Assembly: GCF_988243305.1 (NCBI RefSeq) | Contig: NZ_OZ547136.1 | Strand: one strand, 5' to 3' | DNA: 64,000 bases | Shown here: positions 1 through 28,970 of the stretch, one piece after another | Layout: each line of letters begins with the position of its first letter | How positions within the stretch are numbered: the stretch's first letter is position 1 | Notes under the pieces: generated by a model | Databases searched by the model: none | Seen by the model: only the letters and a program-made list of their open reading frames with translations | Told to the model about the DNA's origin: nothing | Translations under genes and position numbers: made by a program

Positions 1-1
1 C

Positions 2-4633
<4,632 letters not shown>

Positions 4634-4640
<7 letters not shown>

Positions 4641-5245
4641 CAGAACAACAACGTCGCGAACTGGACTGGGAAAAAACCGACGGACTGATGCCGGTGATTG
4701 TGCAACACGCGGTATCCGGCGAAGTGTTAATGCTGGGCTATATGAACCCGGAAGCCTTAGACAAAACCATCGAAAGCGGCAAAGTCACCTTCTTCTCGCG
4801 CACTAAACAGCGACTGTGGACCAAAGGCGAAACGTCGGGCAATTTCCTCAACGTAGTAAATATTGCGCCGGACTGCGACAACGACACGCTACTGGTACTG
4901 GCGAATCCTATCGGACCAACCTGCCACAAAGGCACCAGCAGCTGCTTCGGCGACACCGCTCACCAATGGCTGTTCCTGTATCAACTGGAACAACTGCTCG
5001 CCGAACGCAAATCTGCCGACCCGGAAACCTCCTACACCGCCAAACTGTATGCCAGCGGCACCAAACGCATTGCGCAGAAAGTAGGTGAAGAAGGGGTGGA
5101 AACCGCACTGGCAGCGACGGTACATGACCGCTTTGAGCTGACCAACGAGGCATCTGACTTGATGTATCACCTGCTGGTGTTGTTGCAGGATCAGGATCTG
5201 GATTTAACAACGGTGATTGAGAACCTGCGTAAACGTCATCAGTGA
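4634..5245 (+). CDS. hisI: phosphoribosyl-AMP cyclohydrolase / phosphoribosyl-ATP pyrophosphatase
   Basis: 203 aa ORF, last gene of his operon. Confidence 0.93.
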
Positions 5246-6464: not shown

Positions 6465-7640
<1,176 letters not shown>

Positions 7641-7820
7641 TCAGAATTAACTTAACTGTGAATCATGATGTTTTTAGCATCCTGATAAGAGCTAAAAGTT
7701 TTAACGCTACGTTGTTCGATGGTCAACGCAACGAAAAACAATTCAGATTTTCTTTATAAGAATAGCTGATATTTATTAAGTTAATATTAAGCAGTGAAAT
7801 TTAGTCTATAAGATAATTGG

Positions 7821-7852
7821 CAAAAAAAAGCCCGGTGCAATATACGCCGGGC
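7821..7852 (-). terminator. rho-independent terminator downstream of gnd
   Basis: inverted repeat gcccggtg...cgccgggc followed on the minus strand by an 8-nt T-run. Confidence 0.7.
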
Positions 7853-7879
7853 CTCAATTTTATTGTTGGTTAAATCAGA

Positions 7880-9286
7880 TTAATCCAGCCATTCAGTATG
7901 GAACACACCTTCTTTATCAATGCGCTTATAAGTATGCGCACCGAAATAGTCACGCTGTGCCTGGATCAGGTTCGCAGGCAGAACAGCGGCACGGTAGCTA
8001 TCGTAATAGGCAACCGCAGCAGCGAAGGTCGGAACCGGGATACCGTTCTGTACTGCATAAGCAACGACATCACGCAGCGCCTGCTGGTAGTCATCGGCAA
8101 TTTGCTTGAAGTACGGAGCCAGCAGCAGGTTAGCGATCTGCGGATTTTCGGCATAAGCATCGGTGATTTTCTGCAAGAACTGCGCACGAATGATGCAACC
8201 AGCACGGAAAATCTTCGCGATTTCGCCGTAGTTCAGATCCCAGTTGTACTCTTCAGACGCTGCGCGCAGCTGAGAGAAACCCTGAGCGTAAGAAACGATT
8301 TTGCCCAGATACAGAGCACGACGAACTTTTTCGATGAACTCACCTTTGTCGCCAGCTGGCTGCGCTTGCGGGCCAGAGAGAACTTTAGATGCGGCAACAC
8401 GCTGCTCTTTCAGAGAAGAGATATAACGTGCAAACACAGACTCGGTAATCAGCGACAGCGGTTCTCCGAGATCAAGCGCGCTCTGGCTGGTCCATTTACC
8501 GGTACCTTTGTTAGCCGCTTCATCCAGGATCACATCAACCAGGTAGTTACCGTCTTCATCTTTTTTGGTGAAGATGTCTTTGGTGATGTCGATCAGGTAA
8601 CTACTCAGTTCACCGTTATTCCACTCGGTAAAGGTCTGTGCCAGTTCTTCGTTAGAGAGATTCAGGCCGCCTTTCAGGAGAGAATAGGCTTCAGCAATCA
8701 GTTGCATATCACCGTATTCAATACCGTTGTGAACCATCTTCACATAGTGACCCGCGCCATCAGCACCAATATAGGTAACGCACGGTTCGCCATCTTCAGC
8801 AACGGCGGCGATTTTGGTCAGGATCGGAGCAACCAGTTCATAGGCTTCTTTCTGCCCACCAGGCATGATGGAAGGCCCTTTCAGCGCCCCCTCTTCACCG
8901 CCGGAAACACCGGTACCGATGAAGTTAAAACCTTCGGCAGAAAGCTCACGGTTACGACGAATGGTGTCCTGGAAGAAGGTGTTACCACCATCAATGATGA
9001 TGTCACCTTTATCGAGGTATGGCTTGAGAGAATCAATAGCAGCATCCGTGCCTGCACCTGCTTTCACCATTAACAGGATGCGACGAGGCGTTTCCAGAGA
9101 TTCAACGAACTCTTTCACCGTATAGTAAGGAACCAGTTTCTTGCCTGGATTTTCGGCAATCACTTCTTCCGTCTTCTCACGGGAGCGGTTGAAAATAGAG
9201 ACGGTATAACCACGGCTTTCGATGTTGAGCGCAAGGTTGCGCCCCATCACTGCCATACCGACGACGCCGATCTGTTGCTTTGACAT
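7880..9286 (-). CDS. gnd: 6-phosphogluconate dehydrogenase, decarboxylating
   Basis: 468 aa ORF, N-terminal [16 protein letters not shown]-binding motif. Confidence 0.95.
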
Positions 9287-9448
9287 TGTTTACTCCTGTC
9301 AGGGGTGGTCACCGCCGAGTGTGCGGCTTAAATGTGGTATAGATGTTAACTCACTCATAGAGATGGTGAATAGCATTACCTTTGCGATACCACACTGAAT
9401 ATCTCATCTTTTCCGTCTTTTAAAACCTATTTATATGAATTTACTCAA

Positions 9449-10819
9449 TTACTTATTCAGTAACTCAAGGATAAGTTTTGTCTTTTCTTCCATCAGCGGC
9501 ACATCACCGCGCGATTCCACATTCAGGCGCACCACCGGTTCGGTGTTGGAGGAGCGCAGGTTAAAGCGCCAGTCGGCAAAGGTCATGCTGATGCCATCGG
9601 TACGATCCACCGCCAGCGCCTCGCGGCTAAAGTGCTGTTCGACGCGGTTAATCGCCTCAACGGGTTGCGCCAGTTTGCTGTTGATCTCACCGCTTGCCGG
9701 AAACGCTGCCATCCGGTCGCGCACCAGTTCGCCCAGCGTTTTTCCTTTCAGGCACACCAGTTCGGCTACCAGCAGCCACGGGATCATGCCGCTGTCGCAG
9801 TAAGCGAAATCACGGAAGTAATGGTGAGCGCTCATTTCGCCACCATAGATGGCGTCTTCCTTGCGCATACGTTCTTTAATAAAGGCGTGTCCGGTTTTCG
9901 ACATCACCGGAGTGCCGCCCGCGGCGGTCACCACATCAACGGTATTCCAGGAGAGACGTGGATCGTGGATGATCTTCGCGCCGGGATTTTTTTCGAGGAA
10001 CGCTTCTGCCAGCAGGCCGACAATGTAATAGCCCTCGATAAACTGCCCTTTTTCGTCAAACAGGAAGCAGCGGTCAAAATCGCCATCAAAGGCAATGCCC
10101 ATATCCGCTCCGTGTTTGATGACCGCATTGCGGGTGTCGTCGCGACATTCCGGCAGCAGCGGATTAGGAATACCGTTGGGGAAATTGCCGTCCGGCGTGT
10201 TGTGTACTTTGATTAATTCCACCGGTGCGCCGAGGGCTTTAAATCGGGCTTCAATGGCGTCCACCACCGGACCCGCCGCGCCGTTCCCGGAGTTAATCAC
10301 CAGCTTGAGCGACGTGAGGTTTTTGACGTTGATATAACCGAACAGGTGCTCAACGTAAGCGTCACGCAGATTGATTTGTTGATAGCGACCGCGTTTGGTT
10401 TCATCGACGGGAGGAAAGTCGTTGGCTTCTGCCAGACGCTGGACATCGCGTAGTCCGGTATCACCGCTGATCGGGCGAGCCCCCTCGCGAACCAGCTTCA
10501 TGCCGTTATAATCCATCGGATTATGGCTGGCGGTGACTTCAATGCCGCCATCCACGCCGAGATGGAACGTGGCGAAATAGATTTCTTCGGTGCCGGACAT
10601 GCCAATATCCAGCACATCGACGCCCGCATCCTGTAAACCTTTCGCCAGCGCCAGTTTTAAGGTTTCGCTGGTGAGGCGGGCATCACCGCCTAACACAATG
10701 GTTTTCGGTTTGAGAAATTCGCCATAGGCGCGACCAATGCGCCACGCAATATCTTCATTCAGTTCTTCGCCTAATTTCCCGCGAATATCATAGGCTTTAA
10801 AGCAGGTTAATTTTTTCAT
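9449..10819 (-). CDS. manB: phosphomannomutase, O-antigen cluster copy
   Basis: 456 aa ORF; nearly identical over most of its length to the colanic acid copy at 31900-33270; diverges only in the last ~15 codons. Confidence 0.9.
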
Positions 10820-10843
10820 ATAAAAACCTTACCAATAATAAAA

Positions 10844-11602
10844 TTATTTATGCGCAAATAATTGCATTAGTTTTGATATTTTTCTGATAATGATAGCAAT
10901 TTTCCAATTTACATTATGGTTTTTCATAACTTCTACAATTTCCTTTGTACTTGATATCGCGTTATCAATTCTGGTACTTTCCCCACCCAATCTCATCTTT
11001 ACAAATACTTGAGGAACATAAATAACTTTAATATCATCACGTTTCAAAATCCTGACCATCTGATCATAGTCTGCAGCAATCCTATAGGATAAATCAAAAT
11101 ATCCATCGTCTTTATATAATTCCCTCCTCATATAGAAAGATGGATGCGGTGGTGCCCAGCCTAATGATAGCTTAGAACGTTTAAAAGGACCACTACGCCA
11201 GTATCGTTTGATTATATCAATTTGGTTTTTTTCGAAAAAAACCAAATCACCGTATACAACATCCGCTTTTGTCTCATGGAAACGGCTTACAATAGTTTCA
11301 ATAATATCAGGTCTTGCTAAAAGGTCATCAGAATGAACGAATCCAATAATATCTCCCGTAGATAAATTTATACCTTTATTTAAAGCATCATAGATACCGT
11401 TATCGCTTTCTGATAGACATTTGGTTACTCTTGTTGATACTTCGTTAATTAGTTTTAACGTATTATCTGTAGAACCACCATCAATAATTATATACTCTAT
11501 ATCTTTATAGGTTTGCAACTCTATTGACTCTAAAGTATCCCTTAAAGTCTTTTCACTATTATAAGTCACTGTAATAATACTGACTTTCATTTTAACATCC
11601 AA
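10844..11602 (-). CDS. glycosyltransferase, family 2-like
   Basis: 252 aa ORF; N-terminal SIITVTYN...DGGSTD motif typical of GT-A fold; AT-rich; start may be the internal Met at MKVSIIT. Confidence 0.75.
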   Translation of the reverse strand: MDVKMKVSIITVTYNSEKTLRDTLESIELQTYKDIEYIIIDGGSTDNTLKLINEVSTRVTKCLSESDNGIYDALNKGINLSTGDIIGFVHSDDLLARPDIIETIVSRFHETKADVVYGDLVFFEKNQIDIIKRYWRSGPFKRSKLSLGWAPPHPSFYMRRELYKDDGYFDLSYRIAADYDQMVRILKRDDIKVIYVPQVFVKMRLGGESTRIDNAISSTKEIVEVMKNHNVNWKIAIIIRKISKLMQLFAHK

Positions 11603-11673
11603 TAATAATCATAATTAAATAACGTCAGTACCGCATTACGAATAATAATGTTGCATTAGTATCCAGCATCATT

Positions 11674-13074
11674 TTAGATTCTAACAACATCATCTTCATC
11701 CAAGTAAACACCTGAACGTACCTCAATAATCTCCAAAGGGATCTTTCCTGGATTCTCAATAAAATGAGGTACACCTATTGGTATATAAGTTGATTCATTT
11801 TCAGAAACAAGAAATATTTCATCTTCATAATGGACTTTTGCTGTTCCAGAAACAACAATCCAATGCTCAGTACGATGGTAATGAATCTGTTTAGCAGTTT
11901 TATGTCCAGGATGAATAACGACATGTTTAACCTCAAATCGAGATCCTTCCGCTATAGAGTCATGACTGCCCCATGGCCTAAATATTTCACGATGCTGCAG
12001 ATATTCCGTACGGTTATTAACTTTAAGTTTTTCTACAATATTTTTTACCTGTTGAACTTTATCTTTATGCGCAACGAGAATAGCATCTTTAGTTTCAACA
12101 ACTACTAAATCTTTAACTCCTACTACACCAATTAATCTATGTTGTGAGTAAAGATAACTGTCAGAAGAATCATGAATTAATACATCTCCTCTAATTGCAT
12201 TTCCACTTTTATCTTTTCTGCTAATTTCCCATAATGCAGACCAAGAACCAACATCGCTCCAGTGGGCATTTAATGGAACTACCACAGCCTCTGTTGTTTT
12301 CTCCATAACAGCGTAATCAATGGATTCTTCAGGGCAACAACTAAATGAGTCATTATCTATACGGATAAAATCAAGATCTTGTGTAGAGGACTTCAATGCT
12401 TGTTGGCATATTTTTAGTATGTCTGGTCTAAATTTATTCAACTCATCAATAAACACAGAAGCCCTAAACATGAATATTCCACTATTCCAAAGATAATCTC
12501 CATCTTCAAGATATTTTTTGGCCACATCTAGCTCAGGCTTTTCAACAAAAGCAGAAACTTTAAAACCATATTCATTTAAATTTTCTCCGGTTTTTATATA
12601 GCCATATCCAGTTTCGGGTTTGGTTGGCACAATACCAAAAGTTACCAGCTTACCTTCCTCTGCAAATTCTTTTGCAGCCAATATTGACGATATAAAGCGC
12701 TTTTGGTCTTGTATTTCATGATCGGCTGCTAGTACAAGCAGTATTGGATCCTCACCTGATGAAATCGCTTTAAGAGCAGCAAGCGCAACTGCGGGGGCAG
12801 TATTACGACCTACCGGCTCTAGTAAAATGCCACTATTCGCTAAATTTACATTACGCATCTGTTCTGCAACGATAAAACGATGAACTTCATTACAAATAAC
12901 CAGAGCAGGACGATGTTCAACCCCTTCAAGCCTTCTTAAGGTCTCTTGTAGCATAGTCAAACGACTAGTTAACGACAGGAATTGCTTCGGATATAGTGTT
13001 CGAGAAAGTGGCCACAATCTAGTTCCAGAACCACCGGCCATTACAACAGGAAGTAGCATATAAATAACCTTCAC
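11674..13074 (-). CDS. manC: mannose-1-phosphate guanylyltransferase, O-antigen cluster copy
   Basis: 466 aa ORF; [19 protein letters not shown] nucleotidyltransferase motif; paralog of the colanic acid copy but divergent and AT-rich. Confidence 0.88.
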   Translation of the reverse strand: MKVIYMLLPVVMAGGSGTRLWPLSRTLYPKQFLSLTSRLTMLQETLRRLEGVEHRPALVICNEVHRFIVAEQMRNVNLANSGILLEPVGRNTAPAVALAALKAISSGEDPILLVLAADHEIQDQKRFISSILAAKEFAEEGKLVTFGIVPTKPETGYGYIKTGENLNEYGFKVSAFVEKPELDVAKKYLEDGDYLWNSGIFMFRASVFIDELNKFRPDILKICQQALKSSTQDLDFIRIDNDSFSCCPEESIDYAVMEKTTEAVVVPLNAHWSDVGSWSALWEISRKDKSGNAIRGDVLIHDSSDSYLYSQHRLIGVVGVKDLVVVETKDAILVAHKDKVQQVKNIVEKLKVNNRTEYLQHREIFRPWGSHDSIAEGSRFEVKHVVIHPGHKTAKQIHYHRTEHWIVVSGTAKVHYEDEIFLVSENESTYIPIGVPHFIENPGKIPLEIIEVRSGVYLDEDDVVRI

Positions 13075-13526
13075 TTAAAATAATTTTTTGTGTACTGATG
13101 AACTGAGGAATTAGCTAACAATTCGGCTATATCGAACCAATTGTAAGTACTATGTTGTAGTGTTGGATAGTTAATTTGATGTGGCATCAAACTAATCTCA
13201 TATCCGTGTACGACATAATGAGTTGAAAAACAAGTCCCAGAAAAATTGTCGCTGTAGAAATGTTCATAAATCCCAAGAAATTTTGCTTCATTAATGCTAA
13301 TTTGAACACCCAATTCTTCAAAAGTAACTCTTTTGAATGCGTTCTCGAAAGACTCATCTTTAAGAATCCGTCCCCCCGGCACAAACCAATAATTTTGTGC
13401 TGGACGATTAAGGCGCTGACCAAGCAGCGCCTTACCATCTTCGTTTCTTATAATAAGGTCTATCGAGATTAGTGGAGTATGTTCAACTATTGATTTAAAT
13501 AACTCTGTTTCTAATCTCTTGTTCAA
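13071..13526 (-). CDS. gmm: GDP-mannose mannosyl hydrolase (Nudix)
   Basis: 151 aa ORF, Nudix-like, between fcl and manC as in the colanic acid cluster. Confidence 0.8.
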   Translation of the reverse strand: MNKRLETELFKSIVEHTPLISIDLIIRNEDGKALLGQRLNRPAQNYWFVPGGRILKDESFENAFKRVTFEELGVQISINEAKFLGIYEHFYSDNFSGTCFSTHYVVHGYEISLMPHQINYPTLQHSTYNWFDIAELLANSSVHQYTKNYFK

Positions 13527-13528
13527 TA

Positions 13529-14494
13529 TTAACTCCTAAATGAGTCAAGATTATTTATAAACCATTTATATGTTAATTCTAGTCCTTGTTTTAAATTATA
13601 ACGATATTTCCAGCCCAAATTCTCAAGGCGTGTAACATCCATAAGTTTACGAGGCGAACCATCTGGTTTTGTTATATCAAAAACAATTTTTCCATCATAG
13701 CCAACAACTAAAGCCATTGTTTCTGCCATTTCACGTATGGAACAATCAACACCAGTACCTACGTTAATATGAGATAACATTGGTTGAGTATTTTTTTTAT
13801 AAATTTCATCATCAAGCTCCATCACATATACTGATGCAGCTGCCATATCATCAACATATAAAAACTCGCGTTTTGGAGTTCCCGTTCCCCAGACAACCAC
13901 TTCATTTAAACCAAGTTCCTTTGCTTCATGAAAACGCCGCATAAGCGCTGGAATTACATGTGAGTTATTGGGATGAAAATTATCATTCATACCATATAAG
14001 TTAGTAGGCATTACACTGCGATAATCACATCCATATTGGCGATTATAAGATTCACATAGCTTTATACCTGCTATTTTGGAAATAGCATAAGGCTCATTAG
14101 TAGGCTCAAGAGTTCCCGTCAAAAGTGCAGATTCTTTCATTGGCTGTTCTGCAAACTTTGGATAGATACAACTTGACCCTAAGAATAATAGTTTCTTTAT
14201 GCCCGCTTTATAAGATGAGTGAATAATATTGCTTTCAATGAGAAGGTTCTGATAAATAAATTCAGCTGGAAAAGTGTTATTAGCATGAATTCCTCCTACT
14301 TTTGCTGCTGCAAGGTAAACCTGATCTATTCTCTCTTGCTCAAAAAAACATTCAACATCCTTTTGAACTGTCAAATCGAGTTCTTTGTGAGTTTTGACAA
14401 TTAACTCAACATCATTACGTGCTAATAATTGACGACAAATAGCAGAACCAACCATCCCACGATGTCCAGCCACAAAAATTCGCTTCTTGGTCAT
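13529..14494 (-). CDS. fcl: GDP-L-fucose synthase
   Basis: 321 aa ORF; N-terminus [13 protein letters not shown] matches the colanic acid Fcl paralog. Confidence 0.88.
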
Positions 14495-14497
14495 ACT

Positions 14498-15619
14498 TTA
14501 ACGCTCCAAAGAGACTGCCACGTCAAAACCATGGCTTTTAAGAAGTGCATGCTGTTTAGCTTTTTCTAAATCACTAGCCACCATTTCTGCACACATTTCT
14601 TCAACTGTAATCTCTGGCTCCCAACCCAAGACATTTTTTGCTTTTGTTGGATCACCAAGAAGAGTTTCAACTTCTGCTGGTCGAAAATAACGAGGGTCAA
14701 CGCGAACAATAACATCACCAATATTAACACCAACGGCGCAATCTGATGTTTTATTTACAACCATTGCAACCTCATCAACACCAGTACCGGAAAACTCAAG
14801 TTCAAGTCCAACTTCTTTAGCAGACATACGGACAAATTCACGTACAGATATTTGTTTGCCAGTGGCAATAACAAAGTCTTCTGGCTGGTCTTGTTGAAGC
14901 ATCATCCATTGCATACGAACATAATCTTTCGCATGCCCCCAATCACGTAAAGAATCCATGTTGCCAAGATATAAGCATTTTTCTATTCCCTGCGAAATAT
15001 TAGCTATAGCACGTGTGATTTTACGTGTTACAAACGTTTCCCCACGACGTGGGGATTCATGATTGAACAAAATACCGTTGCATGCATACATTCCATAAGA
15101 CTCACGATAGTTTACAGTGATCCAATATGCATACAGTTTAGCTACGGCATAAGGTGAACGAGGATAGAACGGCGTTGCCTCTTTTTGTGGAACTTCCTGA
15201 ACTAATCCATACAATTCAGAGGTTGACGCCTGATAAAATCGGGTTTTTTTTTCTAATCCCAAAAAACGAATAGCTTCCAATAATCGTAAAGTACCTATAG
15301 CATCAACATCAGCTGTATATTCTGGGGATTCGAAGGAAACAGCTACGTGACTCATTGCTCCGAGGTTGTAAACTTCATCAGGTTGAACTTCAGATAATAT
15401 ACGAGTCAAATTAGAAGTATCTGTTAAGTCACCATAATGAAGGTGTAATTTTAAATTAATATTATGGGGATCTTGGTATATATGGTCAATACGTCCAGTA
15501 TTAAAAATAGAAGAACGTCGTTTTATTCCATGAACCTCGTAACCTTTATTTAGTAGAAACTCTGCCAAATATGAACCATCTTGACCAGTAATGCCAGTAA
15601 TTAATGCTTTCTTTGTCAT
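14498..15619 (-). CDS. gmd: GDP-mannose 4,6-dehydratase
   Basis: 373 aa ORF; [20 protein letters not shown]-terminus, highly similar protein to the colanic acid Gmd, but AT-rich DNA. Confidence 0.9.
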
Positions 15620-15629
15620 AAAATTATTC

Positions 15630-16664
15630 CTACAGTAGTTTCTTGTAAATATCGATAGTTTTGTCAGTACATTTTTTCCAAGAAAAACGTTGTGCTTGAG
15701 ATAAACCTTTCTTAATAATTTGATTTCGATTTCTATTTATAAATGATATACCATCAATAAGGTTGCTTATACTTAACTCATCCATCAAATAACCGGCGTC
15801 ACCTGCAACCTCTGGTATTGAGGAGTGATTATACGCAATGAATGGGCATCCTGCCCTCATTGCTTCTAAAAGAGGAATACCAAATCCTTCATAACTTGAC
15901 GGATAAATAAGAGAATGAGCTTGATTAAATTTTAGATTCAACTCTTGCTCAGTTAAATATGGATAATGAATATATCGATATGGTATATATTTATCAAGTA
16001 AAAATTTCTCAGCCTTTCCCAAAGGGCCTCCACCTACAATATATAGTTTGAACCCCTCTAATTTGTTTATTGCTTCAACTGCAAGTTGAAAGTTTTTATA
16101 TGCTTTTCTCGAACCAATAAAAAGCATGAAATTATCATCATCGTTATAATTAACGTTTTTTAATTCATAAAAATTATCAGACACCCCATTGTGAATGATT
16201 TCGATTTTACTTTCAGGTACTGGACAATACCTCAACAAATCATTGGCAGTATTTTCTGAAATGCAAATTATTTTATCACTGTTTTTTATAGCATTGTACT
16301 TCTGATGACAATGAACGTATTTACGTAAACCTGACATATATTTTTCATATGTAAAGTCATGTACTGTTGTTATGTTTTTATTTTTTTTGCCCTTACTAAA
16401 TCTATAATAACTAGAATGTAATAGAGAGTTTTCAGGAATATCAACAGCTCGATACCTTTCAAGAAAGCGAGGATATAGATTAATATAACGTCCAGGTTGT
16501 CGCACATCTTCACTTATAAATTGACAGCCTGTATTCTCATAGTTTAATATCGTATATTCAATATTTGTGGCTTTTATCGCTTTTATTATTTGATTATAAT
16601 AAACAGAAATGCCACCGTATGACTGGAGATTATATATAATACCATCCAAATATAACATAGGCAC
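15630..16664 (-). CDS. glycosyltransferase, GT-B fold (family 1/4-like)
   Basis: 344 aa ORF; C-terminal [19 protein letters not shown] motif typical of GT4 retaining transferases. Confidence 0.75.
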
Positions 16665-16673
16665 CTTTTATAT

Positions 16674-17687
16674 TTAATTGTATCCATCAGGATTTAGCGT
16701 ATGCCATTTCCACGCAGAAGAAAGCATTTCGGTCAAATCTCGCCTAGCCTTCCAGTCCAGTTCTTTTTCAGCTTTGGAAACATCCGCCCAACATTCTGCA
16801 ACATCGCCGCTTCGGTTAGGGCCAAAACTATAATTAATATTTTTCCCAATAATTGATTGAAATGTTTTTATTACTTCTAATACAGAATATCCTCTACCCG
16901 TACCTAAGTTATATATTTTATAATTTCCTCCTTTGCCAAACATTTTAAATGCTGAAATATGCCCCTCAGCTAAATCATTTACATGAATATAATCTCTGAT
17001 ACCAGTCCCATCAGGCGTTGGATAGTCATGACCATAAATAGTAAGCGCAGGTAATTTACCTAAAGCAACATTCATCATATATGGAACTAAGTTAGCAGGA
17101 GTACCTCTGGGATTTTCACCTATTAACCCAGACTCATGCGCCCCCACTGGATTAAAATATCGCAAAATAATCACATCTAATTTAGGGTTTGCCAGAGAAG
17201 CATCTTTTAATATAACCTCGGAGTAATATTTACTGGTCCCGTATGGATTCGTTGTTTCACCTATACGACATTTTTCATTGATAGGTATCGTTTCTGGAAG
17301 ACCGTACACCGTAGCAGATGAGCTAAAGATAATTTTATTTACATGAAAGATCTTCATTAACTCTAACAAATTTAAAAGCCCAACAATATTATTCATATAA
17401 TAACGTATAGGACTTTGAACTGATTCTGAGACAGACTTAAGGCCTGCAAAATGTAATACTTTAGAGAATGTGTGATTCGTGAATATAGTCTTTAATTCTT
17501 TTTTGTCCAATAAATCTACCTTATATGCTCTGATTTTCTTACCACTAAGCTTTGAAATGACTTTGATGATATCTTCTGTAGAATTAGAAAAATTATCTAT
17601 GATGACAACGTCTTCATTCTGCTCCAATAATGACAGAACAGTATGGGACCCAATATATCCAGCTCCACCCGTAACTAATATTGTCAT
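16674..17687 (-). CDS. NAD-dependent sugar-nucleotide 4-epimerase (GalE family)
   Basis: 337 aa ORF; VTGGAGYIGSH Rossmann motif and YGTSK catalytic motif; substrate not determinable from sequence. Confidence 0.8.
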   Translation of the reverse strand: MTILVTGGAGYIGSHTVLSLLEQNEDVVIIDNFSNSTEDIIKVISKLSGKKIRAYKVDLLDKKELKTIFTNHTFSKVLHFAGLKSVSESVQSPIRYYMNNIVGLLNLLELMKIFHVNKIIFSSSATVYGLPETIPINEKCRIGETTNPYGTSKYYSEVILKDASLANPKLDVIILRYFNPVGAHESGLIGENPRGTPANLVPYMMNVALGKLPALTIYGHDYPTPDGTGIRDYIHVNDLAEGHISAFKMFGKGGNYKIYNLGTGRGYSVLEVIKTFQSIIGKNINYSFGPNRSGDVAECWADVSKAEKELDWKARRDLTEMLSSAWKWHTLNPDGYN

Positions 17688-17696
17688 AAAAACACC

Positions 17697-19019
17697 TTAT
17701 TTGAATTTAAAAAAAACTATTTGCATCGATAATCTCAAGCATATGTATGCCATAAAGAACATACCTAATTCAAATATCATAGAAGAAAACTCTGAGCGTT
17801 GGAAATTGATAGATTGGGAAAGAAAAACAAGATAAAGAAAATAGTTGCTCCCAATTAACCTTTCCATTATATATGAATAACCACATAAAATGGCAGGAAA
17901 TATAATTACACCATAATAATTATAATTAATAAAAGCTTCTGTAAAAGGAGTAAATGCATATCCCATCATAAACTCTTGACTTGGCAAATAAACTTCCTTT
18001 GCAAATTGAATAGCTAATGTGTCTGGCTTTAATCCCATAAATAATTCTTTTGGTATAAAGTTTACAATGAACTGAAGATAGGATATACCAAAAAATTGAG
18101 TCTGATAATGTATCGAAGAATAATATTGAAGTGTAGATATAGGATAAATAAATTCACCCAAAGCATTCAATAATCTTATGCTTGATTCGACATTATAATC
18201 TGAACGATATATCCCAAAAAGTATAATCGTTGATACAAATAGAATACTGAACAACGCTACTTTTAATGGTATCTTAAATTTAGCTTTATAAAGTGATAGC
18301 AATACAGCCATAATAAAAGATAAAGCAATTTCTCGTCTTGAACCTACCAGCATTAAAGTATAAAAATATAAAAGCACAGGTATGCTGTATATTACGAAAC
18401 TATAATTTGTGAGACTTTTTTTTACTATCTTTAAATCAAGTAAAATCCAAAAATAAGCAATAACCACATATTTCAGATACCATCCACTTTGACTTACCGA
18501 ATTAATTAACTCTAGGCGAGTACTTTCGCCCAAAGCATTCAGAGAAAGATTTCTTGATTGATATAGAAAAAATAATGATATTAACCATGCTATGCATGAT
18601 GGAATAAATAGATTATAGTTATTGTCATAGTTATATTGTTTGTTTAAAAGAAATATATTGATACCGTGAGGCCTAATCAAACTAATCGATGCAACTATAC
18701 ACCAAACAGCAACACAATATAAGAATGAAGTGTTGATTATATTATTTTCAACATTAAATACATTAACACCAAAAAAATAATACAACAAAAAAGACACAAA
18801 AAAATAAAAAGGCGATAATATTATAAATATTCCATCAAACCATACCCACATTCGATTATATACAAAAAAAAGAATTGCAATTGTAAATATTACAGATAAA
18901 AACCAAATTAGGATAGCATCAATTTCAACTTTGACAGAAGTGCTCAATACAGCAATCATTATCAACCCAATAAAGCCATAAAATTGAGCCAATACCAGTT
19001 TGTATTGTTTATAAATCAT
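17697..19019 (-). CDS. wzy: putative O-antigen polymerase
   Basis: 440 aa, very hydrophobic multi-spanning ORF, very AT-rich, within O-antigen cluster; assignment by topology and context only. Confidence 0.6.
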   Translation of the reverse strand: MIYKQYKLVLAQFYGFIGLIMIAVLSTSVKVEIDAILIWFLSVIFTIAILFFVYNRMWVWFDGIFIILSPFYFFVSFLLYYFFGVNVFNVENNIINTSFLYCVAVWCIVASISLIRPHGINIFLLNKQYNYDNNYNLFIPSCIAWLISLFFLYQSRNLSLNALGESTRLELINSVSQSGWYLKYVVIAYFWILLDLKIVKKSLTNYSFVIYSIPVLLYFYTLMLVGSRREIALSFIMAVLLSLYKAKFKIPLKVALFSILFVSTIILFGIYRSDYNVESSIRLLNALGEFIYPISTLQYYSSIHYQTQFFGISYLQFIVNFIPKELFMGLKPDTLAIQFAKEVYLPSQEFMMGYAFTPFTEAFINYNYYGVIIFPAILCGYSYIMERLIGSNYFLYLVFLSQSINFQRSEFSSMIFELGMFFMAYICLRLSMQIVFFKFK

Positions 19020-19854
19020 ATTTTAACAATCCCGTCCAGAAACCGATTAATCTGTACATATATAATTTTTTTTGTTTTTTTAAAACGATACCAAAAAATG
19101 ATTTTACTGTGATCCTGAAAATTTCCAATAGTAATAAATAACGAGATTTCACTAAATACTTCTTTATCACGACACCATATCCAACTGCATATTTTCTGTA
19201 TTTTTCTGGTATCCCTTCACAATATAAATCATTATCGTGATAAACTCCAAATATAGGTTGAAAACATACTCTAAACCCAAGAGATTTCAGCCGAAAAAAT
19301 AACTCCGTTTCTTCGGATCCACCGAATAAAGTACCAACACCTAACCTTTCATCAAAATATATATTATCGAGTTTATGAGTAAAAATAAAAGTACCCACAC
19401 TTAGTGACGATTTAATTATTTGATTATAACCCATTTCCTTTTTAGTTTTAGGATAAACTCTATTGGCATAAGATTTCATTGTTTGAAAATCTAATACAGG
19501 AACTGAAAGAACGGTTTCTTTTTTGATATTTGATTGAATCACCTTCTCAAAAAAATCAGGAGCATAAAAAGCATCATCATCACAGAACCCAATAACATTA
19601 CCACTGCATAGTTTAAGCCCTTGATTACGAGCAGTTGAAAGTGGTACTTTATTTGATTTAACCAACTTGTATTTTATATTTTTTGCGTGTTTTAAAAATA
19701 ATTGCTCAATTATGATATCATCAGTCTGATCAATAAATATAATTTCTAGGTTTTTGTACGTACTGCTAGCTATGCTATTTAGCAGTCGTTCAATTTCTTT
19801 ATCCCTTCCACCTTGAGTTGTGCCTATCAAACTAATTTTATAAAAGTTATTCAT
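19009..19854 (-). CDS. putative glycosyltransferase
   Basis: 281 aa ORF in O-antigen cluster, GT2-like N-terminal region, overlaps wzy by 11 nt. Confidence 0.6.
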   Translation of the reverse strand: MNNFYKISLIGTTQGGRDKEIERLLNSIASSTYKNLEIIFIDQTDDIIIEQLFLKHAKNIKYKLVKSNKVPLSTARNQGLKLCSGNVIGFCDDDAFYAPDFFEKVIQSNIKKETVLSVPVLDFQTMKSYANRVYPKTKKEMGYNQIIKSSLSVGTFIFTHKLDNIYFDERLGVGTLFGGSEETELFFRLKSLGFRVCFQPIFGVYHDNDLYCEGIPEKYRKYAVGYGVVIKKYLVKSRYLLLLEIFRITVKSFFGIVLKKQKKLYMYRLIGFWTGLLKYDL

Positions 19855-19855
19855 A

Positions 19856-20776
19856 TTAATATCCTTTTTTTAAGATTGAATTAATCTTTATTTTACAATA
19901 ATAAGCAAATTTTCTAAGAAAAACACCATTTATATATTTAATCTTTACTCCTAACTTAGAAAAAATAATAAAATACACCTTAAAATAATAACAAATAGCA
20001 TTAAGAAAACGATGACTTGATTGCGGAAACAAAACCATCCCTAGCTCATCTTTATCGAGAATAATCCCCTGTTTTTTTAAATTACCAATGGCAATAGATA
20101 TGTGAATATCTGCTTGTATATGCTTTTTTATATTCGATATTTGATTTCCGTGATTTCGATAATAAAGCAAGGGTATATTTATATTACAGAATTTTCCGTA
20201 GTTTGCTAATCTACTCCAAAACTCATAATCTTCAGCATATTGGTAGCGTGGCTTATAATATAGGCATTCTTTTTTTATAATGCTGCTTCTCATCATTACA
20301 GTTGGATGAGCAAAACAACTGCCCACCAACAATCCTATTTTACAGGCTTCGTCTGAGTTAGGCATTTTTATAATTTTTCCGCTATTAACAGCTGACTCAA
20401 AAACTTTGATATTAGTTCCACAACACGCTATTTTTTGATCTGCATCCATTATTTCAACTTGTAATCTCAACCTTTCTCTGTGAGCAATATCATCAGCATC
20501 CATTCTAGCAATATACACTCCCGTAGCCATGTCTAATAATTCATTTAAAGTAGCTACTATCCCTTTATTTTCTCTATGCTTAATTTTGAATATCGCGGGA
20601 TATTTATTTTTATATTCATCAAGTATCTTTTGTGTACCATCCTGCGAGCCATCATTGATGATGATAATTTCAAATATTTTATATGTTTGTTCCAATATAC
20701 TGTCAATGCATGCGCCTAAGTATTTTTCAGCATTATATACCGGTATTATAACGGATACTTTGTTTTTATTAATCAT
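19856..20776 (-). CDS. glycosyltransferase, family 2
   Basis: 306 aa ORF; VSVIIPVYNAEKYL...INDGSQD motif. Confidence 0.78.
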   Translation of the reverse strand: MINKNKVSVIIPVYNAEKYLGACIDSILEQTYKIFEIIIINDGSQDGTQKILDEYKNKYPAIFKIKHRENKGIVATLNELLDMATGVYIARMDADDIAHRERLRLQVEIMDADQKIACCGTNIKVFESAVNSGKIIKMPNSDEACKIGLLVGSCFAHPTVMMRSSIIKKECLYYKPRYQYAEDYEFWSRLANYGKFCNINIPLLYYRNHGNQISNIKKHIQADIHISIAIGNLKKQGIILDKDELGMVLFPQSSHRFLNAICYYFKVYFIIFSKLGVKIKYINGVFLRKFAYYCKIKINSILKKGY

Positions 20777-20782
20777 AATATA

Positions 20783-22054
20783 TCATACTTTGTTTTTATT
20801 AAGCAGATAACAGATCGTTACTATTAAGGAGAACATATATAATGCTTGAGATATTATATACGCTTTAAAAACATAAGAAATTTGAGCATTTTCGACGTAG
20901 CATAACGAATACTTACTTAATATACAATATACAGACCATTGTAACACTTCTAACACTATATATTCTTTTACGAATGCTTTGCTAATCAGCAAATAACCAA
21001 GCACCCATGCAATTATCTTAAAAAAATCTCCAATTAGTTGATAAACTATAACATCAACAATAGGAACGAACTCGTGTGTAAATAGAATATTTACTATCAA
21101 ACCGCGAAATGTATACATCAAGACTGAAGATATACAAACTAACGGAACCAAATACAAATAACAAACTTTTATTTCATTAAGCAATTCTGAACGGTTAGAT
21201 GCACTTGAAAACCTTGGAAAGAAATATACCCCCAATGTAGTCGTAATTAACATCAAATAGACTGAACTTATTCTATTAACAGCATCCCACAACCCAGCAT
21301 ACTCAATATTTATTGATGTTATGATTTCATTTCTCACATATAACGTACTAACTGGCACTAATATAGCTGAAGTGACTGTCATTAAAGAAAAAATTATGAT
21401 CCGTTTTAATATTGAAATATCAATTCGATTGCAATTATTAACATAGTATTCTCTTAAATATTTTTTTGAGTAAAAAAAAGTCACAAAAAACAATATAGCT
21501 TGATTTGAAACTACAGCAATCAATGCTCCTCTCATACCAAAAGAGATTGTCAATATAAAGGCGTATATTGCAGATATTAAACTCGATATGATATTAATCC
21601 ATATATAATTTTTAATAAATGACAATCCATTTAACATAGAAAGAATTATATTATTCCATGCATATAAAATAACACTCCCTCCCAAGAAATAAATTGCGAT
21701 GCTTACTTCATCATTAGAATTGAAAAATTGTTCGATAATTATATTTTTAAAGATAATTATGATAACAGCGGTTATAAATCCCATTATAGTAGACAAATAA
21801 ATTGCATTAATCCAAAAACTCCAGATTTTTTCCTTATTACTATTCTTATACTCTGACGTATACTTAACAATACTCGTTGAAATAGCTTGTGATGGCGCAA
21901 CCATAGCTATATTAAGGATATTTTGGATTTGGCCAATAAGTGCATATCCAGACGTACCTAAATATATTGCGAATACTTTATTAAGTCCAAGTAGAGTTGC
22001 TATTTTGACAAATACAGAAAGGCCATTAAGAATAAAGACATTATATACTTTCAC
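20783..22054 (-). CDS. wzx: putative O-antigen flippase
   Basis: 423 aa multi-spanning membrane ORF, first gene after the JUMPstart element. Confidence 0.65.
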   Translation of the reverse strand: MKVYNVFILNGLSVFVKIATLLGLNKVFAIYLGTSGYALIGQIQNILNIAMVAPSQAISTSIVKYTSEYKNSNKEKIWSFWINAIYLSTIMGFITAVIIIIFKNIIIEQFFNSNDEVSIAIYFLGGSVILYAWNNIILSMLNGLSFIKNYIWINIISSLISAIYAFILTISFGMRGALIAVVSNQAILFFVTFFYSKKYLREYYVNNCNRIDISILKRIIIFSLMTVTSAILVPVSTLYVRNEIITSINIEYAGLWDAVNRISSVYLMLITTTLGVYFFPRFSSASNRSELLNEIKVCYLYLVPLVCISSVLMYTFRGLIVNILFTHEFVPIVDVIVYQLIGDFFKIIAWVLGYLLISKAFVKEYIVLEVLQWSVYCILSKYSLCYVENAQISYVFKAYIISQALYMFSLIVTICYLLNKNKV

Positions 22055-22116
22055 AGTTCACCTAACATATTAAGTAGGTTATGATAACAAAACTCATATT
22101 TAATTATACCATAAAT

Positions 22117-22160
22117 ATAAACCACGCTACCGCCCCTGGCTATACAGCTACCAGAGCACT
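22117..22160 (-). promoter_or_regulatory. JUMPstart element with ops site upstream of the O-antigen operon
   Basis: plus-strand cacgctaccgcc at 22123-22134 is the reverse complement of the ops sequence GGCGGTAGCGTG; same motif context recurs upstream of wza. Confidence 0.8.
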
Positions 22161-22407
22161 GCGTGTGTGTCTACAATGTAACGAGCGTTTCATGCTCGCA
22201 ATAAACAAAAAACCAAAAGCTAAATTATCTTACTAATCAGCTCTGAAAACAAGGAAATGTGTAAAAAAAGTCCTATTGCTGACTTGTTATTATCCCGAAT
22301 ATTTATAAATCAATAATAGCAGGAAGACTCGCAACAAGTTACTTTGCCTGCTAATCTTCACAACTATTACAGTCTTTTCGCATCTGTTGCATCCGATTCG
22401 ATTTTCA

Positions 22408-23304
22408 TTATTCCCTTAACAGCTTCTCAATCCCTTTACGGAACTTCGCCCCTTCTTTTAGGTTACGCAGTCCATACTTCACAAACGCTTGCATATAACC
22501 CATTTTTTTACCGCAGTCGTAGCTGTCACCGGTCATCAGCATGGCATCAACAGACTGTTTTTTCGCCAGTTCGGCAATAGCATCAGTCAGTTGGATACGT
22601 CCCCATGCACCTGGCTGAGTGCGTTCCAGTTCCGGCCAAATATCGGCAGAAAGCACATAACGGCCCACGGCCATGATGTCTGAGTCCAGCGTCTGCGGCT
22701 GATCCGGTTTTTCGATAAATTCAACAATGCGGCTGACTTTACCTTCGCGATCCAGCGGTTCTTTGGTCTGGATGACGGAGTATTCAGAGAGGTCACCCGG
22801 CATACGTTTTGCCAGCACCTGGCTACGGCCCGTTTCATTGAAGCGTGCAATCATGGCAGCAAGGTTGTAGCGTAGCGGGTCGGCGCTGGCGTCGTCGATC
22901 ACAACGTCTGGCAGCACCACGACAAATGGATTGTCACCAATGGCGGGTCGTGCACACAAAATGGAATGACCTAAACCTAAAGGTTCGCCCTGACGCACGT
23001 TCATAATAGTCACGCCCGGCGGGCAGATAGATTGCACTTCCGCCAGTAGTTGACGCTTCACGCGCTGCTCAAGGAGAGATTCTAATTCATAAGAGGTGTC
23101 GAAGTGGTTTTCGACCGCGTTCTTGGACGCGTGAGTTACCAGGAGGATTTCTTTGATCCCTGCAGCCACAATCTCGTCAACAATGTACTGAATCATTGGC
23201 TTGTCGACGATCGGTAGCATCTCTTTGGGAATCGCCTTAGTGGCAGGCAACATATGCATCCCAAGACCCGCTACCGGTATAACTGCTTTTAAATTCGTCA
23301 TCAT
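22408..23304 (-). CDS. galF: UTP-glucose-1-phosphate uridylyltransferase-like regulatory subunit
   Basis: 298 aa ORF, nucleotidyltransferase N-terminus, conserved position upstream of O-antigen cluster. Confidence 0.9.
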
Positions 23305-23542
23305 TTTCCTACCTCTAAGTGGCTGATAGTGCGTAAATTATGCCATAGGTTAGCCAAACGGTATGGCTATATACCAAAGCTTAGTTCCGCATAACTTTGA
23401 TTAAACCTTACGATAACACTACACACCATCAGCATCTGGGTTACTCGGATTACTCGGAAATCCACATACTGATAATTTAATCAGTACCTCTTTCCGAATA
23501 ATCGTAGTCCAACCTGGTCCTTTTTTCTCTGACTCGTCTGCA

Positions 23543-24538
23543 TTACTCAGAAACAAACGTTATGTCGTCTTTTTTGGCATGAACGAATTCATACTGCAGA
23601 GTTCGATCCAGACCTTGCGACAGCGTATACGGTGCCACAAAACCTGAAGAATGCACTTTCGTTGCGTCAAACTGTGTTGTTGCGCAGAATTTTTTCACGC
23701 GCACTGAGCTGACAGCGTATTTTTTGCCCGTAATTTTGCTCAGGATATCAAAACAATATCCACCCAGCATTCCTAGTGGGTAAGGCAAGTGCATAGAAGG
23801 GATCTTTTTGTTCAGGCTTTGTTCAACTTCAGCAACCAACTGGTTCATGTTCAGGTCTGGCTTATCAACGTAGTTATAAACCTCATAACCTGCGGCAACA
23901 TTCTTCAGTTTGTACTTGATAAACTCAACAATGTTTCCAACATAAGCCATGGACTTATAGTTAGTTCCTGCACCCACCATCATAAACTTGCCGCCAGCGA
24001 TCTGTTTCAGCAAGTTATAGACGTTACCGCGGTTGCGTTCACCGAAGATAACGGTAGGACGGATGATGGTTAATGAACGTTCTGTTGGTGCTTTGTTATA
24101 CCATTCACGCAGCACTTCCTCTGCCTGCCACTTACTTTTGCCGTAGTGGTTGAAAGGGTCGTGTGGATGGTTTTCGTCAGGGTTATGTTTGTTCAAACCA
24201 TAAACAGCAACGGAACTGGTAAAGATGATATTTTTAACGCCATTTTTTTCCATGGCCGCCAGCACATTGCGGGTACCCTGAACGTTGACATCATAATAGA
24301 GAGAAGTAGGGCTGACGTCATCGCGGTGTTCCGCTGCCAGTAGTACAACAGTGTCAAAACCAACTAATGCCTGGTCGAGTGCCTGTTGATCGCGAACATC
24401 GCCAATCTGTGTGATTTCTGGATAAAAGTGGCTCTGCTGTTTGTCCAGGTTCTTGATATTAAAGTCAGCAATTGCCGTTTCAAGTAGTCGGGTTCCTACG
24501 AATCCGGAAGCTCCTATGAGCAAAACGTTATCGTTCAT
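23543..24538 (-). CDS. gne: UDP-N-acetylglucosamine 4-epimerase-like protein
   Basis: 331 aa ORF; N-terminal LLIGASGFVG Rossmann motif; lies between wcaM and galF as recalled for gne in some E. coli lineages. Confidence 0.75.
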   Translation of the reverse strand: MNDNVLLIGASGFVGTRLLETAIADFNIKNLDKQQSHFYPEITQIGDVRDQQALDQALVGFDTVVLLAAEHRDDVSPTSLYYDVNVQGTRNVLAAMEKNGVKNIIFTSSVAVYGLNKHNPDENHPHDPFNHYGKSKWQAEEVLREWYNKAPTERSLTIIRPTVIFGERNRGNVYNLLKQIAGGKFMMVGAGTNYKSMAYVGNIVEFIKYKLKNVAAGYEVYNYVDKPDLNMNQLVAEVEQSLNKKIPSMHLPYPLGMLGGYCFDILSKITGKKYAVSSVRVKKFCATTQFDATKVHSSGFVAPYTLSQGLDRTLQYEFVHAKKDDITFVSE

Positions 24539-24695
24539 AAATCACTTTAGTCTGGTTGTTACGTAAGAAACACAAGATAAAGATGAGTACCTTCCCTGAG
24601 TAGTCAATGCTGCCCAGCCCCAGCTTTAACAGTTAGTGTGAGGATTATAATCTTTTAGAACATTATATCCAGTAAGTTTATGAATGGTCGCAAAT

Positions 24696-28598: not shown

Positions 28599-28639
28599 TT
28601 TTTCCTCATAAATTTGATGCCAGGTGAGGCTGTGTTTGT

Positions 28640-28960
<321 letters not shown>

Positions 28961-28970
28961 AAACAGCAAC

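Follow-up and report, generated by a model that had tools for sequence, protein, structure and literature searches.

The second GDP-mannose/GDP-fucose gene set of an Escherichia coli O125 O-antigen cluster and its uneven divergence from the colanic acid genes

Described systems and layout of the locus

The O125 (O125ab/O125ac) O-antigen cluster of Escherichia coli has been published (Iguchi 2015; DebRoy 2016, PMC4732683; Liu 2020, PMC7685785; Furevi 2022, PMC9680116). The O125 repeat unit is built from L-Fuc, D-Man, GalNAc, and Gal, with one alpha-L-Fuc and one alpha-D-Man, GDP-L-Fuc and GDP-D-Man are listed as the donors, and the glycosyltransferase gene between manC and manB is named wdaG (PMC9680116). 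The O157 cluster likewise contains a second low-GC gmd-fcl-gmm(wbdQ)-manC set and a colanic acid (CA)-like manB that has a GC content of 0.54, is 97% identical to CpsG in amino acid sequence, and ends in an AT-rich 3' tail; according to Samuel et al. 2004, as cited in Iguchi et al. 2011 (PMC3158064), the CA gene has taken the place of this manB, in which gene conversion is evident. The O157 set is of a different lineage, closer to CA (Gmd 80%, Fcl 66%, ManC 55%, and Gmm 49% identical to O125), its manB differs from that of O125 in tail sequence and 3' boundary, and its manC and manB, unlike those of O125, are not separated by a transferase gene. The K-12 CA set, gmd-fcl-gmm-wcaI-cpsB-cpsG, has the same five functions, order, and strand as the O125 set, and its Gmd and Fcl give gap-free alignments with those of O125 in which the catalytic residues are identical. 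The CA set is unlike that of O125 in its high GC content, its operon behind wza with a separate JUMPStart, the algC leader before cpsG, the insertion of wcaI between gmm and manC, and protein identities to O125 of 47-83% except for ManB.

The window analyzed here, a 64,000-nucleotide stretch of contig NZ_OZ547136.1 (GCF_988243305.1), encompasses the E. coli his–gnd, O-antigen, galF, and CA region. Its O-antigen cluster is located between galF and gnd, 11.3 kb of it are 99.9% identical at the nucleotide level to seven O125 genomes, identity to NCTC8623 is likewise 99.9%, and PGAP names the products of wzx and wzy an 'O125 family' flippase and polymerase; by these sequence comparisons, the cluster is that of serogroup O125. 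From galF to gnd, the order is wzx, GT2, GT2, wzy, gne, GT4, gmd, fcl, gmm, manC, GT2, manB, and locus, order, and sugars agree with the published cluster, with no difference of substance. About a dozen differences from NCTC8623 were found in the block 9233-22975, including two SNPs in gmd, three in manB, and one homopolymer that differs by 1 nt close to the 3' terminus of the second GT2 gene, while the flanking gnd is ~4% different. The gmd-to-GT2 block of O11 (window 10800-15620) is 98.8% identical and encodes an identical GT2 protein, with gmd (96.0%) and manB (96.35%) below the genes between them; the O11 wzx, wzy, and other transferases are unrelated to those of O125. The genes compared are as follows.

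O-antigen gmd: 14498-15619, minus strand, intact ORF (TIGR01472, PDB 1db3)
O-antigen fcl: 13529-14494, minus strand, 321 aa, GC 0.36 (NF047922, PDB 1bsv)
O-antigen gmm (Nudix): 13071-13526, minus strand, 151 aa, TTG start (NF011963, PDB 1rya)
O-antigen manC: 11674-13059, minus strand, 461 aa, PGAP start as in NCTC8623 (TIGR01479)
O-antigen GT2 glycosyltransferase gene between manC and manB: 10844-11590, minus strand, ORF matching GT2 models
O-antigen manB: 9449-10819, minus strand, CA-like tract (9487-10819) plus AT-rich tail (9449-9486)
CA gmd: 37669-38790, minus strand, GC 0.54, in the context wcaF-gmd-fcl-gmm-wcaI
CA fcl: 36701-37666, minus strand, ORF used for pairwise comparison
CA gmm: 36219-36698, minus strand, 159 aa, ORF extending to 36701
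wcaI of the CA locus: 34999-36222, minus strand, between gmm and cpsB/manC
CA manC (cpsB): 33551-34996, minus strand, 481 aa, with a 9-nt in-frame extra repeat
CA manB (cpsG): 31900-33270, minus strand, 456 aa

At both loci gmd, fcl, gmm, manC, and manB are intact and encoded on the minus strand. The first-pass annotation of this DNA had described a shared gmd-fcl-gmm-(x)-manC-(x)-manB template, which holds with a single intervening gene per set: the CA set has wcaI in this role, and the O-antigen set has the GT2 gene. The interval given in that annotation covers gmd-fcl-gmm, but manC and manB lie outside it. None of the ten ORFs contains an internal stop, and the Gmd and Fcl pairs are gapless (373 and 321 aa). 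The TTG start of O-antigen gmm is matched by an identical 456-nt PGAP CDS in NCTC8623, and the manC ORF could begin further out, at GTG 13074. Only generic GT2 models match the product of the gene between manC and manB, and clusters of both O125 and O11 have an annotated protein of identical sequence (WP_000868617.1). The CA Gmd protein of the window matches its wca-cluster counterpart from three other strains at 100%, and cpsB is 97-99% identical to those of other strains in an alignment allowing for the 9-nt indel. The second GDP-mannose/GDP-fucose set in O125 is already known, intact, and ordinary. With high confidence, we read it as the precursor set for O125 GDP-D-mannose and GDP-L-fucose, with its uneven divergence from the CA genes probably arising from constraint and its manB probably replaced by CA-type sequence.

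Enzyme families and divergence of gmd, fcl, gmm, and manC

The O-antigen proteins were compared with curated family models, solved structures, and their CA counterparts. O-antigen Gmd scored 584 bits against TIGR01472 (cut-off 415) Fcl 537.7 bits against NF047922 (cut-off 500), and Gmm 194.4 bits against NF011963 (cut-off 146), all three, like ManC, scoring as equivalogs. The best solved structures are E. coli GMD (1db3, E 1.7e-213), GDP-fucose synthetase (1bsv, E 3.5e-156), and GDPMH (1rya, E 3.9e-46), respectively. In alignments, T133/E135/Y157/K161 of Gmd are identical to the CA copy, S107/C109/Y136/K140/H179 of Fcl (the Ser107/Tyr136/Lys140 triad plus Cys109/His179) are conserved, and the Nudix box GGR..KDE...E.LG and the Q-H motif of the catalytic-base region are aligned in Gmm. 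ManC matched the bifunctional model TIGR01479 across residues 2-461 with 740.7 bits (cut-off 373) and fell under the CpsB-specific cut-off (NF012004, 670 vs 859), and by these scores it is classified as a ManC, but not as a CpsB ortholog. ManB passed the CpsG subfamily model NF011943 (1047.7 bits, cut-off 801). The O-antigen enzymes are predicted to be catalytically active.

Divergence from the CA copies is uneven. Protein and nucleotide identities are 82.8% and 68.9% for Gmd, 71.0% and 62.7% for Fcl, 58.3% and 58.2% for ManC, and 47.3% and 50.3% for Gmm, compared with 96.5% and 94.6% for ManB. Third-codon-position identity for the first four pairs is 0.30-0.34, GC content is 0.35-0.39 in the O-antigen genes vs 0.54-0.57 in CA, and GC3 is 0.23-0.30 vs 0.63-0.70. 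These values bear out the earlier statements that Gmd is similar despite divergent DNA and that Fcl and Gmm are less alike, and the Gmd N-termini quoted there match the window translations exactly. The view that ManC differs substantially at its N-terminus did not survive alignment, as the difference is confined to the first ~5-10 residues and stems in part from the choice of start codon, and residues 1-40 are 78% identical vs 58% overall. The suggested dN/dS estimates could be obtained only for manB (ratio 0.098), because the proportion of synonymous differences (pS) of 0.86-0.95 for gmd, fcl, gmm, and manC exceeds the Jukes-Cantor limit and makes dS, and with it dN/dS, inestimable for these pairs; their dN values are 0.135 (gmd), 0.245 (fcl), 0.364 (manC), and 0.528 (gmm).

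One explanation for such unevenness is that the genes have separate histories, with gmd and in part fcl homogenized with CA by gene conversion and gmm and manC left out. The manB gene shows that exchange between the two loci happens, and among the four pairs other than manB, Gmd has the highest similarity. No conversion tracts were found in the first four genes, however, with third-position identity in sliding 40-codon windows of 0.17-0.47 throughout; that of gmd is 0.20-0.45 in all windows, like fcl and manC, and its pS of 0.94 is saturated. Efficient RecA-mediated exchange needs a minimal efficient processing segment of roughly 23-27 nt, and uninterrupted identity extends over at most 14 nt in gmd and 14-15 nt across the four pairs. 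The identity rank Gmd > Fcl > ManC >= Gmm also persists without the CA genes, when O125 is compared with O184, strain EC195, and O157, and it recurs in each of these independent comparisons. It is constant in seven pairings among O125, O184, EC195, O157, and CA, with Poisson distance ratios of ~1 : 1.4-2.1 : 1.8-4.4 : 2.5-4.5. Conversion of gmd is therefore largely refuted, and separate histories are very unlikely. The recurring rank points instead to enzyme-specific constraint, whereby the unequal protein divergence (Gmd < Fcl < ManC < Gmm) would reflect the differing functional constraint on each enzyme; uneven divergence between paralogs need not mean different gene histories.

The shared gene order and orientation on the same strand, ~23 kb apart, and the 95% identity of manB to cpsG could also suggest that the CA genes were duplicated in tandem within E. 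coli and the copies then diverged in place. Divergence in place would not be expected to lower GC so far, from a GC3 of 0.63-0.70 to 0.23-0.30, and the set moves with the O-antigen cluster, as the block 9233-22975 is near-identical to NCTC8623 and the adjacent gnd is not. The same low-GC module is found in the O11, O184, and EC195 clusters, and the CA-derived appearance is limited to manB, with boundaries within coding sequence. We consider a duplication of this kind extremely unlikely. The low GC content together with the saturated synonymous sites argues for horizontal acquisition, and on this evidence the O-antigen gmd, fcl, gmm, and manC are best described as old horizontally acquired homologs that would have arrived along with the O-antigen cluster, not as recent CA duplicates.

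A redundant O-antigen set decaying under relaxed selection, especially at gmm (47%), with precursors made by the CA genes, would account for the strong divergence of Gmm and ManC, and a shared soluble pool makes redundancy of the two sets conceivable. We assign this scenario next to no probability, since every O-antigen ORF is intact, the proportion of nonsynonymous differences (pN 0.12-0.38) is far below pS, and catalytic residues are conserved in proteins scoring over curated cut-offs. In addition, fcl, gmm, and manC of O125 and O11 are 99.6-99.8% identical, a second gmd occupies ~780 extra places among the 4,843 complete genomes that gave a match, and Gmm evolves fastest in all comparisons, those between functional O-antigen sets included.

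The manB mosaic

ManB, the most unequal pair, was left unquantified by the first-pass annotation. Gene nucleotides 1-1333 of O-antigen manB (9487-10819) are CA-like, with a GC content of ~0.54 vs 0.34-0.39 in the neighboring genes, and this tract begins exactly at the ATG and is 94.6% identical to the cpsG of the window. The longest identical run between the two is 101 nt, dS is 0.19, and dN is 0.019, and CA copies from thousands of genomes align to the same 1333 nucleotides with 95-97% identity. Divergence sets in after ...CCGCTGATGGAAG, 38 nt before the stop, and the remainder (9449-9486) is an AT-rich 3' tail comprising the last 12-13 codons and the stop that is not CA-like. This tail is also present in O184 and O11, the O157 tail is AT-rich but different, and the tail plus the manB-gnd spacer are common to ~439 complete genomes, among them BL21 and UPEC 536.

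The mosaic is consistent with the gene-conversion pattern described for O157. Nearly all of manB would have been overwritten by cpsG-type sequence via homologous recombination or gene conversion, with a low-GC predecessor surviving as the last ~13 codons and with the cpsG leader and its algC motif not carried over; we infer both the direction and the timing of this replacement. In the related EC195 cluster, manB is unrelated (474 aa, 23% identity) and would be unfit as a recombination substrate, so that the 13-codon tail is the only trace pointing to the O125 predecessor. Across the sampled cpsG and O-antigen manB genes, identity to O125 manB is 95.5-96.8% and none stands out as donor. Recent conversion within this genome is not supported, as manB is 95.7% identical to the cpsG of its own genome (nt 1-1326) vs 95.5-96.8% to cpsG elsewhere. 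The chimeric manB is most likely an old gnd-proximal module, found in many serogroups, that was not made in this strain.

The two ~95% identical manB copies are in direct orientation and 21 kb apart, and such direct manB repeats are known to undergo exchange and to give rise to rough strains by deletion, as reported for O14. Copies of the manB/cpsG body are ~95-97% alike whatever the locus. A more far-reaching proposal, which we regard as speculative and rather unlikely, is that the chimeric manB might be an actively maintained portable homology arm, in which recurrent exchange with cpsG would hold the body in the species-wide cpsG allele pool, both the AT-rich tail and the absence of the algC leader would be under selection, and the 21-kb repeat would promote exchange of the cluster and set the rate of O14-type deletions. 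If this were true, O-antigen manB would escape CA-specific cis-regulation, and O14-type deletions would take out the O-antigen cluster plus the distal wca genes.

Leader elements and sugar supply

Three RNA or leader elements were identified in the window with Rfam models.

JUMPStart/ops of the O-antigen operon, upstream of wzx: 22123-22161, minus strand (RF01707, 52.2 bits)
JUMPStart/ops of the CA operon, upstream of wza: 47898-47936, minus strand (RF01707, 57.3 bits)
algC RNA motif in the cpsG leader: 33275-33324, minus strand (RF02929, 77.3 bits, gathering score 33.8)

The two 39-bp JUMPStart elements each precede the first gene of their operon, as expected for RfaH/JUMPStart-dependent polysaccharide operons. 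Both JUMPStart matches are above the RF01707 gathering score of 35, and the ops core, GGCGGTAG, is located at 22127-22134 in the O-antigen element and at 47902-47909 in the CA element. The algC RNA motif precedes cpsG in three other genomes, with no copy before their O-antigen manB, and a search of window positions 10700-11000, upstream of O-antigen manB, gave no match at E<=10. The O-antigen genes are tightly packed behind their own JUMPStart, and the CA set is behind a different one, an arrangement that suggests co-transcription of the O-antigen module as one operon, presumably with the rest of the cluster from a promoter and the JUMPStart downstream of galF. Transcription of CA is under Rcs control and largely shut down at 37 C. 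From the operon structure and general knowledge, the O-antigen operon is probably Rcs-independent. Scans of the regions preceding wza and wzx for the RcsAB-box consensus gave no hit under strict criteria, and a promoter/terminator consensus scan of 9200-22450 returned no more sites than shuffled sequence and is uninformative on internal promoters.

The gene content of the cluster (gmd, fcl, manC, manB, gne, and four transferases) fits the L-Fuc, D-Man, GalNAc, and Gal of the repeat unit. ManB and ManC would produce GDP-mannose, which Gmd and Fcl would convert to GDP-L-fucose, with Gmm as a Nudix GDP-mannose hydrolase accompanying the module genes, and the GDP-sugars would be used by transferases adding one Man and one Fuc per O125 repeat unit. 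The first-pass annotation had proposed that a duplicated pathway supplies GDP-fucose to the O antigen independently of CA expression. A separate supply agrees with the sugars, the enzyme families, and the operon's own JUMPStart and presumed promoter downstream of galF, which would make precursor supply independent of the CA operon; the term duplicated does not apply to homologs that were probably acquired horizontally. This independence is at the level of transcription only, as one soluble pool is fed by both sets. That an O125 strain carries a complete, intact, and presumably separately transcribed GDP-fucose/GDP-mannose module matters little beyond correct annotation. Both manB copies carry the PGAP label 'cpsG', and this double label could mislead automated pathway or serotype calls.

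Two gene sets for GDP-sugar synthesis in one window

The window was found, from its ORF map and base composition, to hold the classic E. coli arrangement, with all genes on the minus strand except the his genes.

Features of the window (individual genes from ORFs, larger blocks from the ORF map or base composition as marked, JUMPStart/ops elements from Rfam RF01707)
1-5245, not minus strand, unlike the rest: his genes (ORF map)
wzzB, ugd, then 7880-9286 gnd, minus (ORF map)
about 9.4-22.1 kb: low-GC block, GC 0.28-0.39 (base composition)
9449-10819, minus: O-antigen manB
10844-11590, minus: O-antigen GT2 transferase
11674-13059, minus: O-antigen manC
13071-13526, minus: O-antigen gmm
13529-14494, minus: O-antigen fcl
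14498-15619, minus: O-antigen gmd
22123-22161, minus: JUMPStart/ops element of the O-antigen genes
galF, a 4-epimerase gene, and the wca (colanic acid, CA) cluster at 24.7-47.7 kb, minus (ORF map)
31900-33270, minus: CA cpsG/manB
33551-34996, minus: CA cpsB/manC
between gmm and cpsB, minus: CA wcaI
36219-36698, minus: CA gmm
36701-37666, minus: CA fcl
37669-38790, minus: CA gmd
47898-47936, minus: JUMPStart element of the CA operon, upstream of wza

When complete E. coli genomes were searched by megablast with positions 10800-22100, seven matched over the full length at 99.9% identity, including NCTC8623 and an O125ac:H10 strain, and the wzx and wzy genes of these seven carry the PGAP name 'O125 family'. 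This match identifies the low-GC block as the already published O125 O-antigen gene cluster. The gene positions bear out the first-pass annotation in that both loci share the same gene order and orientation, with one additional transferase per locus, placed differently in the two sets.

When window positions 7300-25600 were compared with NCTC8623, only about a dozen positions differed within the O125 block (about 9233-22975), whereas the flanks were much more diverged (gnd by ~4%; galF, the epimerase gene and wcaM were diverged too). A near-identical block between diverged flanks is what transfer of the entire cluster from one lineage to another, with manB as part of the moving unit, leaves behind. 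Compared with the O11 cluster, the inner genes of the shared block (fcl, gmm and manC) show 99.6-99.8% identity and the genes at its two ends show less, gmd 96.0% and manB 96.35%, which suggests a separate recombination history for the ends. Separately, an A8 tract at ~19055-19065, in the 3' end of the GT2 gene at 19009-19854 (minus), is A9 in NCTC8623, a shift that alters the last ~17 residues of the product (281 aa vs 279 aa). Total length varies by ±1 nt among other O125 genomes. The difference may reflect either genuine variation of the tract or a sequencing error in one of the records.

Unequal divergence of the paired enzymes

Identity and divergence of the paired genes (aa and nt as % identity)
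Pair: O-antigen vs CA aa, nt, dN; O125 vs O184 aa; O125 vs O157 aa; O157 vs CA aa
Gmd: 82.8, 68.9, 0.135; 92.8; 80.4; 89.5
Fcl: 71.0, 62.7, 0.245; 85.4; 66.4; 79.1
ManC: 58.3, 58.2, 0.364; 82.0; 54.7; 61.5
Gmm: 47.3, 50.3, 0.528; 74.2; 49.0; 60.8
ManB: 96.5, 94.6, 0.019

All 10 ORFs are uninterrupted, with no internal stop or frameshift in either copy, and the Gmd and Fcl pairs align without gaps from end to end. The first-pass annotation had quoted both Gmd N-termini exactly, and the unequal divergence that it described is confirmed, with amino acid identities of 47.3-96.5%. Its further remark that ManC is especially divergent at the N-terminus did not hold, as residues 1-40 are 78% identical vs 58% overall and the differences there are limited to the first few residues, in part reflecting start-codon choice.

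GC content is 0.35-0.39 (GC3 0.23-0.30) in the O-antigen copies of gmd, fcl, gmm and manC, vs 0.54-0.57 (GC3 0.63-0.70) in their CA counterparts. The dN/dS comparison proposed in the first-pass annotation was run, but because the proportion of synonymous differences (pS) is past saturation for these four pairs (0.86-0.95), neither dS nor dN/dS is estimable. These genes are old homologs, horizontally acquired with the cluster, and not recent duplicates.

Constraint was weighed against history using three further genomes that carry both loci (an O184 strain, EC195 and O157:H7). Amino acid identity ranked Gmd > Fcl > ManC ≥ Gmm in every pairing, including those free of CA copies, and Poisson distances stood at ratios of ~1 : 2 : 3 : 4 (Gmd : Fcl : ManC : Gmm), alike across pairings. 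With manB set apart, a search of the O-antigen/CA paralogs by 40-codon windows and identical runs found no conversion tracts: third-position identity was 0.17-0.47 in all windows and the longest identical run was 14-15 nt. The identity of these paralogs is too low for homologous exchange. Given the constant ranking and the absence of conversion tracts, ordinary enzyme-specific constraint accounts for the unequal divergence of these four genes.

The O-antigen products exceed the curated NCBIfam cut-offs for Gmd (584 vs 415), Fcl (537.7 vs 500), Gmm (194.4 vs 146), ManC (740.7 vs 373) and ManB/CpsG (1047.7 vs 801), and the closest solved structures for Gmd, Fcl and Gmm are the E. coli enzymes 1db3, 1bsv and 1rya. 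Alignment showed that the O-antigen copies keep Gmd T133/E135/Y157/K161, Fcl S107/C109/Y136/K140/H179 and the Gmm Nudix box with Q-H, the catalytic residues according to the structural literature on these enzymes. In every O-antigen/CA pair, synonymous change greatly exceeds non-synonymous change.

A mosaic manB

The sole addition to the first-pass annotation is manB, the real outlier and the extreme case of unequal divergence. The O-antigen copy has a GC content of 0.54, with a dS of only 0.19 from cpsG and an identical run of 101 nt. Similarity starts exactly at the ATG, with unrelated sequence 5' of it, and stops 38 nt ahead of the stop codon, from where the O-antigen copy is AT-rich, so that its last 13 residues differ from the CpsG counterpart; gene nt 1-1333 is the full extent matched by cpsG alleles from thousands of genomes. 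An algC RNA motif (RF02929, 77 bits) lies at 33275-33324 (minus), 5-54 nt upstream of CA cpsG. This motif precedes cpsG in 4/4 genomes examined and is absent ahead of every O-antigen manB in them; since the CA-like tract reaches no further upstream than the ATG, the leader did not come with it.

The O125 manB is 95.7% identical to the cpsG of its own genome, 95.5-96.8% to those of other strains and 95.6-96.3% to the O184, O157 and O11 manB copies. Being no nearer to its own cpsG than to others, it is unlikely to have been replaced recently in this genome. About 439 complete genomes, spread over several serogroups and including BL21 and UPEC 536, share its tail and the spacer between manB and gnd. 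EC195 differs: its gmd-fcl-gmm-manC-GT2 module has 83-90% amino acid identity to the O125 counterpart, but in place of a CA-like manB it carries an unrelated, low-GC phosphomannomutase of 474 aa, 23% identical to CpsG (L004, the EC195 locus, 32579-34003), followed by IS1.

A mosaic of this kind, and its explanation, are already in the literature. The O157 manB is reported as replaced by the CA gene, with gene conversion with cpsG invoked (PMC3158064), and the deletion seen in O14 strains has been attributed to recombination between the two manB genes (PMC7685785). The paired sets are likewise known, from the O125 cluster itself and more generally from O antigens that contain fucose or mannose. 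DebRoy et al. (PMC4732683) record manB and manC in 56 O-antigen gene clusters. Using the O-antigen gmd as a blastn query resulted in 5,627 places in 4,843 genomes, or roughly 780 second copies; manB resulted in 5,731 places in 4,696 genomes.

Sugar supply, regulation and repeats

The O125 repeat unit, →4)[β-D-Gal-(1→3)]-β-D-GalNAc-(1→2)-α-D-Man-(1→3)-α-L-Fuc-(1→3)-α-D-GalNAc-(1→, has GDP-L-Fuc and GDP-D-Man among its named donors (PMC9680116). The O-antigen genes from gmd to manB form a tight array in which neighbours are 2-83 nt apart. Together with the separate JUMPStart elements, the repeat-unit sugars and this packing support the interpretation in the first-pass annotation that O-antigen precursor supply is transcribed independently of the CA operon. 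This independence is transcriptional only, because both sets feed one soluble pool. Rcs control of the CA operon is established; here, an RcsAB-box scan with strict criteria upstream of wza and wzx was negative. Two 4-epimerase genes are present, a GalE/Gne-type gene in the O-antigen cluster (16674-17687, minus) and another upstream of galF (23543-24538, minus) annotated as Und-PP-GlcNAc 4-epimerase (Gnu), consistent with GalNAc as both the initiating and an internal O125 sugar.

Within the CA cluster, tandem repeats of the REP/BIME type, matched by the Rfam model naRNA4, fill the wzxC-wcaK gap (28599-28970; 372 nt, against 161-371 nt elsewhere in other strains) as well as the one between cpsB and cpsG (33271-33550). 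A 124-aa ORF at 28595-28969 falls inside such repeats and can almost certainly be dismissed as a gene. In cpsB, the 9-nt unit GCGCTGGCG occurs three times at 34685-34711 (minus) and twice in three other strains, the extra unit adding an in-frame Ala-Leu-Ala (481 aa vs 478). At 63708-63856 (plus), near the end of the window, the Sib antitoxin RNA family (Rfam RF00113) is matched over its full length at 146 bits; this RNA is unrelated to the O125 module.
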